Under the pieces are notes generated by a model. That model did no database searches and was not told the origin of the DNA. It worked only from the letters and a program-made list of their open reading frames with translations. From a virus (Duplodnaviria > Caudoviricetes): DNA of 64,000 bases. Both the position numbers and the translations under genes were made by a program. Location: positions 1 through 64,000 of IMG/VR virus record IMGVR_UViG_3300028591_000108; one strand, 5' to 3'. Within the stretch, counting starts at the first letter, position 1. Each line of letters opens with the position of its first letter. This document shows positions 51,325-53,391 of this stretch, piece by piece.

Positions 51325-51404
51325 AAACAATTAAATGCGCCCTTATGGGCGCATTTTCTCTAAAGAGAATTAGATGTATTACATCTAATAATAAAATGCC
51401 CTGC

Positions 51405-51689
51405 TTACCGCAAGGCATTTTTTACTTTATCCCAAAACGATGGTACTTCAATATAGAAATCAGATACACCAACTTTATAATACGGTATTTTTATACCATT
51501 CTGTTCTTTCAAATACCACAGTTCATCATAGTCAGGATGCGTAGGATACCATTGCGCTTTTCCTACTTCATAATAGATTCCAATAATATTCTCATCGCTA
51601 AGATAACCTTCATACTCTTCTGCTCCAATAATTTCCTCATCAGTCCACGGACAATAGAGAATGATACGCTTTTTCTTAATCTTTTTCAC
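51405..51689 (-). CDS. Hypothetical protein (inverted block)
   Basis: GGAGG RBS, GTG start overlapping the upstream stop. Confidence 0.65.
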   Translation of the reverse strand: MKKIKKKRIILYCPWTDEEIIGAEEYEGYLSDENIIGIYYEVGKAQWYPTHPDYDELWYLKEQNGIKIPYYKVGVSDFYIEVPSFWDKVKNALR

Positions 51690-52051
51690 GTTCCCGACAC
51701 CTCCCTATACGCCATTTTCCAAGCCGCGTGCAATGCTTCATGACTCGTAGGTTGCGGAATATTCCCAGTATAATAAGACAGAAGAGATTTATCTATTTGT
51801 CTATACTTTCTCAAATCATCATCGTATGCGGCAATCAGATTCAAAATACGCTTCTGATAGGTTTCAATCTCTTGAAGTTCTACATTTTTGTCCGGCCCAT
51901 CAGGAAGCATTTCTGCACTTCCTTTACACACAATAATCTTGTGACAATAGTTTCTCATCAATTGCTTATGCTCACACAGATTGTTTAACAGCTCTTTCAT
52001 GTGAATATCTTCACCGCTCCAAATTTCCTGCTCTTTCTTTCTTCCAAACAT
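51686..52051 (-). CDS. Hypothetical protein (inverted block)
   Basis: AAAGGAG RBS, downstream of the leftward promoter at 52082-52109. Confidence 0.7.
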   Translation of the reverse strand: MFGRKKEQEIWSGEDIHMKELLNNLCEHKQLMRNYCHKIIVCKGSAEMLPDGPDKNVELQEIETYQKRILNLIAAYDDDLRKYRQIDKSLLSYYTGNIPQPTSHEALHAAWKMAYREVSGT

Positions 52052-52169
52052 TTCTTTCAACTCCTTTCTGAGTACAGATACATTATAACAGAATATAAAG
52101 AAAAGTCAAGCACCCTCTTTAGATGTATTACATCTAACTTTAATAAGAGGAGCAAAACTCCTCTTCTCC

Positions 52170-52655
52170 TTAATATCCTAAGTCATAGCGCCCGTCTTCA
52201 TAATGTCCATATACCCAGTATTTCTTATACTCCGTATCGAACCAAGAAACATATCCACAATTTTTCAAATCATCCTTAAATTCTTCTTCAGTAAATTCAT
52301 CTCCGTCTGCCCAATACGCACCCTGCCGGAAAACTTTCCAGACCTCTTCCGGTACAAGATTGTGACGACCATAGCCCTTATAATGAGCGATTACGGTTGG
52401 CGCTACGTCTTCATGGTCTTCACAATCATTATCCCAATAATACAGCGCCATTCCCTCATTCATAGAATCTTCGTACTGCTTTACCAGTTCCGCTTCTTCA
52501 TTATCTACAAACTTATATACTTCAAACCGATAAGTCGGATGATTCTTATTAAACCAATCTTCCCAATCATTCACCAGAAACATCGGTTCACGATCAGCAT
52601 CACATTCATACTGGTCACCAAGTTCTACGCACTTTACAATCAGATACTTCGTCAT
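52170..52655 (-). CDS. Acidic hypothetical protein (inverted block)
   Basis: AAAGGAG RBS, ELGDQYECDADR motif. Confidence 0.75.
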   Translation of the reverse strand: MTKYLIVKCVELGDQYECDADREPMFLVNDWEDWFNKNHPTYRFEVYKFVDNEEAELVKQYEDSMNEGMALYYWDNDCEDHEDVAPTVIAHYKGYGRHNLVPEEVWKVFRQGAYWADGDEFTEEEFKDDLKNCGYVSWFDTEYKKYWVYGHYEDGRYDLGY

Positions 52656-52773
52656 TTTATAGCTCCTTTCGGTTTCTCAGTGTTTTCCTTCACTTCATGT
52701 CTGTATTATATCACAAGTATAGAAAAAGTCAAGCAACGCTTTTAGATGTATTACATCTAACTTCTCAAGACCG

Positions 52774-53178
52774 TCAGACAGTCTTGCAGTAGAAACACCA
52801 TTTAATATCAAAAACATATTTCAATTCAAATCCTTCAGTCTCTAATAAATGCCGCATCCCCATATTGTCGCTCCATGGCGTAGCTCCAATATTTCCATGC
52901 GCTATTTTTGCACATTCGTGTAGCGCAAAACGAGCTATACCTTTTCCCTGATTTTTCTTATTACAAATACATAATCTTTTGATAGCGGTATATCCATACT
53001 GTTCCTCTGGCACAAGAGATACTGTAGCCAGCACCTTTTCCCCTTCCGCAACGACGTATAATTTCTCATTACAATAATCTGCTTTTACCAACTCGGGAGT
53101 AATATAAGATAAGTCTTTACAATAAAGAGCTTTCACAACCTTTATCAAGTCGGTGCGAGTTGCCTGTCTAAATTCCAT
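52774..53178 (-). CDS. GNAT-family acetyltransferase (inverted block)
   Basis: MEFRQAT..D, IKRLCI...QGKGIA acetyl-CoA motif, N..MRHLLETEGF. Confidence 0.85.
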   Translation of the reverse strand: MEFRQATRTDLIKVVKALYCKDLSYITPELVKADYCNEKLYVVAEGEKVLATVSLVPEEQYGYTAIKRLCICNKKNQGKGIARFALHECAKIAHGNIGATPWSDNMGMRHLLETEGFELKYVFDIKWCFYCKTV

Positions 53179-53391
53179 TTCTTCATCCCCTCTCGGTTGA
53201 TATCTATATTATACTCGAAAATAGAAAAAAGTCAATGGCCACTTTAGATGTATTACATCTAACTTTTCCTCTTGACAAATCAAATGTTCATGTGCTTCCG
53301 AACATTTCGCCCTAAATCTCTACTAATGTTTATTACTTGACATGTCGGCGCCTTATCCCATAAGCTACATTTCCGCTGTCAAGTACTTGAC

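Follow-up and report, generated by a model that had tools for sequence, protein, structure and literature searches.

Positions 51370-53262 of a 64-kb viral sequence raise the question of how a block of three neighbouring gene cassettes came to lie on the minus strand at the end of an array that otherwise reads rightward. The sequence, hereafter the window, covers positions 1-64,000 of the viral record IMG/VR IMGVR_UViG_3300028591_000108 (141.9 kb in all), and the array is a ~19-kb run of small cassettes bordered by copies of one 19-bp palindrome. An earlier note on this DNA had read the block as an inversion and as the footprint of recombination at the palindrome. Our comparison with related genomes suggests that exchange does occur at the palindrome, but that the block is the inherited short opposing arm of an array of early-gene cassettes. 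The palindrome in such an array would probably be an operator and, at the same time, the preferred crossover place for homology-driven shuffling of the cassettes.

The 19-mer, TTAGATGTA[A/T]TACATCTAA, was found 36 times, all within 34633-53262, and nowhere else in the 141.9-kb record when up to three mismatches were allowed (chance expectation 0.09). Every intergenic gap of the array contains one. The units share a common order of terminator hairpin, ~8 nt, palindrome, 9 variable bp, TTGACA, 16-17 bp, TGnTATAAT, a leader that often holds a small hairpin, a ribosome binding site and one to three small genes. At nearly every copy a hairpin with a T-run ends ~8 nt before the palindrome, and in 34 of the 36 copies there is a strong sigma-70-like promoter (TTGACA or TTGACT, 16-17 bp, TGnTATAAT). 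A rightward sigma-70 promoter is present at 32 of the 36 palindromes, and three (52119, 52742 and 53244) have a leftward TTGACT-16-TATAAT with 11 of 12 matches. The 8-bp arms are near-invariant at ~2 bits per position, above the -35 and -10 boxes, while the three central bases vary. The two 8-bp half-sites are 11 bp apart, and across five genomes the palindrome lies 9 bp from the -35 box in ~90% of promoter-bearing copies, on either side of the site.

The layout noted for the minus-strand block is confirmed, with some qualifications (Table 1). The palindrome at 51370 has no promoter on either side and sits between two converging terminators with stable predicted folds, and the GNAT, 52170 and 51686/51405 cassettes are on the minus strand, driven by the leftward promoters at 53244, 52742 and 52119, respectively. 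The copy at 53244 does have a -35 box on both sides, TTGACT 8 bp to the left and TTGACA 9 bp to the right, but the rightward box lacks a -10 at 16-18 bp. It belongs to a conserved array-end element, since the sequence outside the last palindrome is conserved in four genomes, and the next plus-strand promoter is at 53687. Flipping the block in silico, which had been said to restore the regular pattern at both ends, gives a full unit at the left end only, as the rightward TTGACA has no -10. It is true that the block is bounded exactly by two palindromes, but this holds for any run of cassettes since every gap has a palindrome; the informative point is that exactly one palindrome lies at each orientation switch. 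The 8-bp spacing at 53244 had been proposed as a junction scar. The orthologous GNAT promoter in the relative G001 and the terminal promoters of G002-G004 have 9 bp, and spacings of 8 or 10 bp are found at ordinary cassettes too, so the shorter spacing is a 1-bp indel specific to the window.

Table 1. Coordinates of the array and of the features around its minus-strand end (positions in the window).
Feature	Position	Strand	Details
Whole array	34633-53262		36 copies of TTAGATGT-N3-ACATCTAA bordering 35 self-contained cassettes
Cassette with 68-aa gene 36065-36271	36004-36306	+	G003 orthologue inverted in situ
Cassette of single-copy 169-aa family (gene 46537-47046)	46453-47080	+	
Terminator hairpin, last plus cassette (50773-51369)	51333-51356	+	-20.1 kcal/mol, z -5.7
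Convergence palindrome	51370-51388		No promoter either side, two terminators around
Terminator hairpin, innermost minus cassette	51393-51421	-	-17.9 kcal/mol, z -5.3
94-aa ORFan, cassette 1 gene 2	51405-51689	-	Orthologues in G001, G002 and G003 in same converging orientation
124-aa ORFan, cassette 1 gene 1	51686-52060	-	
Promoter TTGACT-16-TATAAT, TG extension	52082-52109	-	9 bp from palindrome 52119
Internal palindrome of minus block	52119-52137		
161-aa ORFan, cassette 2	52170-52655	-	70-82% aa identity in relatives
Promoter TTGACT-16-TATAAT	52705-52732	-	9 bp from palindrome 52742
Internal palindrome of minus block	52742-52760		
GNAT acetyltransferase, cassette 3	52774-53178	-	96% aa, 93% nt identity to G001
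Promoter TTGACT-16-TATAAT	53208-53235	-	8 bp from palindrome 53244; 9 bp in G001-G004
Last palindrome of array	53244-53262		
Conserved array-end element	53263-53310	+	9 bp, TTGACAAATCAAA, short hairpin ATGTTC...GAACAT, no -10
Seven same-strand iterons ACAAGCTGGA	53390-53624	+	GC-rich non-coding stretch

A search with the exact palindrome retrieved 25 stretches from IMG/VR contigs of other metagenomes. We compared the window with five related genomes, of which G001 (188 kb), G004 (190 kb) and G005 (116 kb) are complete. Each of the five genomes has a long co-oriented arm, then a promoter-less palindrome, and then a short opposing arm of one to four cassettes that ends the array. The opposing arms of G001, G002 and G003 carry orthologues of the window genes in the same order and orientation (~70% identity for 51405, ~44% for 51686, 70-82% for 52170, and 96% for GNAT in G001). 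The array-end element is conserved in four genomes, and all eight array ends found with it, three of them on further independent metagenome contigs (L052-L054), carry a leftward promoter on the inner side. The co-linear form was not seen, as no metagenome contig had the strain-specific left junction and all retrieved array ends have an opposing arm, and no alternative-orientation junction was present among the contigs searched, although this search may omit records of the window's own genome. Since the orientation and the orthologues recur in G001-G003 and in independent array ends, the minus block appears to be an inherited short opposing arm, and not a recent or ongoing inversion. Nor do the three cassettes seem to have been turned as one block, as the content of the short arm varies cassette by cassette among lineages and identity to G001 steps from 63% to 80% to 93% from the leftmost cassette to the rightmost.

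The proposal that strand exchange takes place in or next to the symmetric site, allowing inversion as well as excision, is supported in this phage group by both indels and flips. Window cassettes 38375-38704 and 50773-51370 are missing from G001, and at the "empty" G001 palindrome the left flank matches the left junction in the window up to the first palindrome base, with the right flank matching from the base after the palindrome. Over all array pairs there are 421 homology-block ends. Of these, 86 coincide exactly with the outer edge of a palindrome, where 0.56% would be expected, and none fall inside or exclude the palindrome; since these pairs are not independent of one another and a BLAST alignment continues through an identical 19-mer, these counts place the joints in or at the site and do not resolve the position within it. 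As for flips, the 36004-36306 cassette aligns palindrome to palindrome (71% nt identity) with G003 17645-17941 in the opposite direction to every other match between the window and G003. It is at the syntenic position in G003, is co-oriented in G001 and G004, and in its flipped state has diverging promoters at one joint and converging terminators at the other. The single-copy family of gene 46537 is co-oriented in the window, G001, G003 and contig L012, flipped inside the long arm of L037/L039, and located in the short arm of G004. A complete flipped unit is also found within the long arm of G004 (104472-104991), and a distant homologue of the 51405 gene sits in the flipped G004 cassette. The L037 homologue of 51686, a gene that is co-transcribed with 51405 in the window, is a cassette by itself, read in the opposite direction to the cassettes around it. 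All verified switch points have one palindrome each, and the divergent ones keep 8-10 bp to the -35 box on both sides. Six further candidate flips (G001:117548, G001:117989, L021:3954, L016:2026, G003:7459 and G003:15847) had weak or distant promoters and were rejected as artefacts of promoter scoring.

The recombinase or single-strand annealing protein that the earlier note had suggested looking for was not found. Searches for Phage_integrase (PF00589), Resolvase (PF00239), RecT, ERF, RecA and Y1_Tnp (PF01797) gave no match in five genomes, of which three are complete, while reference genomes used as controls were positive (for PF00589, all 14 control genomes). Several observations bear on the type of exchange instead. 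Flips are rarer than indels: the window and G001 differ by none, and other lineages have one to three each. The high-identity GNAT tract shared with G001 starts ~100 bp left of palindrome 52742, in the promoter and leader of the neighbouring cassette, and a tract edge off the palindrome fits homologous rather than site-specific exchange. In G004 91202-109783 (L032, L033), 31 of the 35 palindromes share a TAA centre that points the same way along the genome irrespective of cassette direction, as would be expected if homogenisation acts on directly aligned copies. The G004 GNAT cassette retains the window-type centre, ATT. The pattern of centres suggests concerted evolution within arrays together with occasional import of a cassette with its own palindrome centre. 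Taken with the freely varying centre, the rare flips, the uniform G004 TAA and the GNAT tract edge lead us to favour homology-driven exchange over a site-specific enzyme.

A dedicated site-specific system, in which cassettes are excised, integrated and inverted at the palindrome by a host enzyme or by a phage recombinase or nuclease that escaped recognition, is an unlikely explanation, though several features suit it. Such a system would be akin to an integron or invertase whose sites are symmetric and whose cassettes bring their own promoters, and the junctions do lie within the 19-bp site, sometimes within a single 8-9-bp arm, with exactly one palindrome per switch, arms that are invariant across deep divergence, and many array proteins that are ORFans without an assigned function. 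Against such a system, none of the five genomes has a tyrosine or serine recombinase or a Y1 HUH enzyme, known core sites are longer than 8-N3-8, and the odd-length centre is free to vary whereas an overlap region must match. Flips as rare as those seen here and a tract boundary ~100 bp off a palindrome are also at odds with it, and the strict 9 bp to the -35 box would have no meaning for a recombination site.

Promoter geometry points to a regulatory role. The constant 9-bp spacing to a -35 box, whichever side that box is on, the half-sites 11 bp apart and the free centre, together with arms that are identical in the diverged G005 (whose structural proteins are only 23-59% identical to those of the window) and absent from cellular genomes beyond chance singletons, suggest that the palindrome is probably the operator for a dimeric phage-encoded regulator of the whole cassette set. 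Because the site is symmetric, flipped cassettes would stay equipped, and a single site can be shared at convergent and divergent joints. Each of the genomes has 28-37 copies in one contiguous array, and the motif was not found outside arrays in the phage genomes compared. Among 185,579 species genomes there were nine isolated single matches in unrelated taxa and no arrays, which we estimate to be roughly chance level, and a host operator was ruled out for exact matches on these counts. In the literature that could be searched we found no mention of the motif or of an array of this kind, and the INPHARED phage collection had no nucleotide match to the 51370-53262 block.

From these observations we can propose how the array may work. 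The palindrome would be first of all cis-regulatory, the operator of a phage-encoded dimeric regulator. Since it also reads alike on both strands and is, of all stretches on which the cassettes agree fully, the longest, it would be the preferred place for two cassettes to join, through host or general phage homologous recombination or through template switching during replication. Recombination between directly aligned copies would lead to gain, loss and replacement of cassettes, and between reverse-aligned copies to flips. Flips would be tolerated because promoter and terminator travel with each cassette and because symmetry lets the site serve a promoter to its left or to its right at equal spacing. 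Under this scheme the three minus-strand cassettes would have been turned in an ancestor of subclade G000-G003, either through inversion or through single cassettes that were inserted in reverse, and later genomes inherited the arrangement.

Several points weigh against this proposal. A length of 19 bp, or 8-9 bp per arm where the centres differ, is short for RecA-type recombination, and the domain searches leave room for an unrecognised recombinase among the many ORFans. The exactness of many of the junctions is partly forced, since BLAST extends through the 19-mer and selection preserves promoters and terminators. For the minus block in particular, an inversion is something we infer. The site is centred near -54 by near-consensus promoters, not an obvious position for a repressor or activator. 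A palindrome-binding protein was sought and none was identified: HTH_3 proteins are present in three of the five genomes, the search gave no match to AbrB/MazE, and the conserved array proteins contain no DNA-binding domain. A 91-aa array protein (38072-38347, plus strand) occurs in all four compared genomes at 41-88% identity without belonging to a Pfam family, and its AlphaFold model is confident (pLDDT 89; five strands, two helices, two strands) but has no significant match in the PDB.

The 85-aa product of 50500-50757 (plus strand) was also considered as a binder and rejected; it is the most conserved array protein across lineages, but a small membrane protein. It is hydrophobic with two to three predicted transmembrane segments, is 90-94% identical in all lineages, far above other array proteins, and its cassette is the last or second-to-last of the long arm in the relatives examined.

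Quite unlikely, in our view, is a static design, with two arms that just reflect ancestral gene order and a palindrome that is only an operator without a role in recombination. An opposing arm is present in all lineages and array ends sampled and diverges from a conserved iteron-rich control region, which suits such a design. However, orthologous and single-copy cassettes change orientation between genomes (the G003, G004 and L037 flips), presence/absence junctions fall at palindrome edges far above chance, and the content of the short arm differs between lineages. An assembly artefact is very improbable: identical palindromes can confuse short-k assembly graphs and a mis-join at such repeats could produce an inverted block, but the same orientation and junction sequences are found in at least seven other assemblies (G001-G004 and L052-L054) from different metagenomes, and both junctions have functional-looking flanks, with paired terminators at one and a full promoter at 8-9 bp at the other.

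The array of promoter-bearing cassettes has its closest parallel in the PeSL (promoter-early stem-loop) elements of T4-type phages, in which a strong sigma-70-type early promoter, along with a terminator hairpin upstream of it, flanks small ORFans of a plastic region (Arbiol et al. 2010, PMC2839356; Comeau et al. 2014, PMC4122927). Indel and replacement joints fall in the PeSL motif without an integrase, and homologous recombination between motifs was proposed (PMC2839356, PMC4122927). The array described here likewise has a strong early-type promoter in each motif, a stem-loop terminator directly upstream of the promoter at nearly every copy, motifs flanking small ORFan genes in a hyperplastic region (47 small genes), and indel and replacement joints in the motif, with one tract boundary in the adjacent promoter; no integrase or dedicated recombinase is recognised in either. 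It differs in having a separate, invariant, perfect 19-bp palindrome between terminator and promoter, 9 bp from the -35, in forming one contiguous array of 28-37 palindromes, and in its phage, which is TAG-recoded, has a tape measure of 5,516 aa and is not a T4-type myovirus. Cassette flips with a single shared symmetric site per joint are a further difference, and the word "inversion" is absent from PMC2839356. The array is best read as a PeSL-like regulatory cassette system, a variant with a palindrome and flips.

Other known systems are less similar. Integrons (IntI/attC) share the series of small unrelated cassettes with palindromic sites between them and gain and loss at the level of the cassette, but depend on a PF00589 tyrosine recombinase that is absent from the five genomes, use imperfect attC hairpins where the sites here are identical perfect palindromes, and have one shared Pc promoter where here every cassette has its own promoter and terminator. 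Invertible switches (Hin/Gin/Cin, shufflons and Bacteroides invertons) also reverse a segment between inverted-repeat sites. They differ in their serine or tyrosine recombinases (PF00239, PF00589), not found here, and in that the orientation here appears fixed within lineages; moreover, a flip leaves the linkage of promoter and gene unchanged and so would not act as an on/off switch. For REP/RAYT elements, the cognate Y1 (HUH) transposase (PF01797) is absent. As to regulation, the stoperators of mycobacteriophage L5 and the KorB operators of RK2 are examples of dozens of short intergenic protein-binding sites in one replicon under one regulator, some of them at fixed positions by promoters, giving global control. 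The dyad-symmetric 8-N3-8 site at a fixed 9 bp from the -35 in ~90% of copies is comparable, with the differences that L5 stoperators are asymmetric and orientation-dependent where the site here is symmetric, and that a binder was sought here and none identified. To our knowledge, a role as recombination joints has not been described for stoperators or KorB operators.

Early ORFan regions are thought to house host-takeover and counter-defence genes, and their fast turnover is poorly understood. Here an invariant symmetric 19-mer at every border makes gain, loss, replacement and flips legible at base resolution in natural genomes, in an array whose cassettes turn over without any known recombinase. 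The PeSL idea would thereby reach beyond T4-type coliphages to recoded phages whose promoters are of Firmicutes type, and orientation flips would be added to it. The array also points to a regulator with ~35 identical sites per genome, and the design of site plus promoter could serve as a portable, insulated expression unit. Possible, but doubtful, is a new system of cassette exchange that is orientation-blind and has the palindrome as its substrate, with an unrecognised phage protein that binds the 8-N3-8 sites at all early promoters and pairs or cuts them. If true, one element would co-regulate ~35 ORFan, possibly counter-defence, genes and actively shuffle, exchange and flip them between co-infecting phages.

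The coding of the window sets the array apart. On the minus strand of the first 34 kb (1-34 kb), long open reading frames (ORFs) appear once TAG is read as an amino acid. The largest (1625-18175, minus strand) encodes 5,516 aa, is open only with its 160 in-frame TAGs read through, and has a PhageMin_Tail domain, which makes it an exceptionally long tape measure protein; the late genes adjoining it have six to nine in-frame TAGs each. The phage is long-tailed and recoded from TAG to Gln, and its promoters are of the Firmicutes sigma-A type. In contrast, in-frame TAG is absent from the 47 small genes predicted at 34.6-53.3 kb, 46 of which end in TAA or TGA. The array is the standard-code, ORFan part of the genome, which suggests that it is probably expressed early. 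When the array genes were scanned, only GNAT reached the Pfam threshold and one gene had a PHROG match, of unassigned function; for the short-arm ORFans, Pfam, PHROGs and the ESM Atlas gave no informative match. Paralogues occur inside the array, with three 106-110-aa proteins (43512-43832, 47296-47622 and 49045-49377) and a pair of 329 and 250 aa (45438-46427 and 48015-48767), suggesting that cassettes have been duplicated as well as exchanged.

Some variation was noted in the array units. At 43880-43960 is the sole copy in which 21 bp, instead of 9 bp, separate promoter and palindrome; an additional dyad (TGTATAC-A-GTATACA) lies between the two, and the G003 homologue of this cassette has a long spacing too. 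Many cassettes (e.g., ~36050-36075 and ~50070-50090) have a short hairpin a few nt 3' of the -10, with arms TTGTCC/TTGTTCC and GGACAA/GGAACA around a 4-nt loop, which may be a 5' stabiliser or a second regulatory site given its place near the predicted mRNA 5' end. The polarity of the centre bases was ruled out as a marker of orientation, as it did not correlate with the direction of transcription. N4-type hairpin promoters for a virion RNA polymerase were likewise ruled out, the 5,516-aa ORF being a tape measure and the palindromes adjoining near-consensus sigma-70 promoters.

To the right of the array, the minus block and the rightward plus-strand units diverge from the iteron region, where some of the ACAAGCTGGA iterons are spaced 9 bp apart. 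Beyond the iterons there are plus-strand sigma-70 cassettes that lack the palindrome, leaving the minus block as the last part of the array. We regard the stretch 53263-53700 as a candidate for a control region or an origin of replication. A gene for an SF2 (ResIII) helicase is found at 54793-56151 (minus strand), and G004 has a different iteron (GTATCCA) at the equivalent place. Lastly, a perfect 18-bp palindrome, AAGTCAAAT followed by ATTTGACTT, is found at 53676-53693, overlapping the -35 of the 53687 promoter; it is a second, different dyad site, at the first cassette without the array palindrome.

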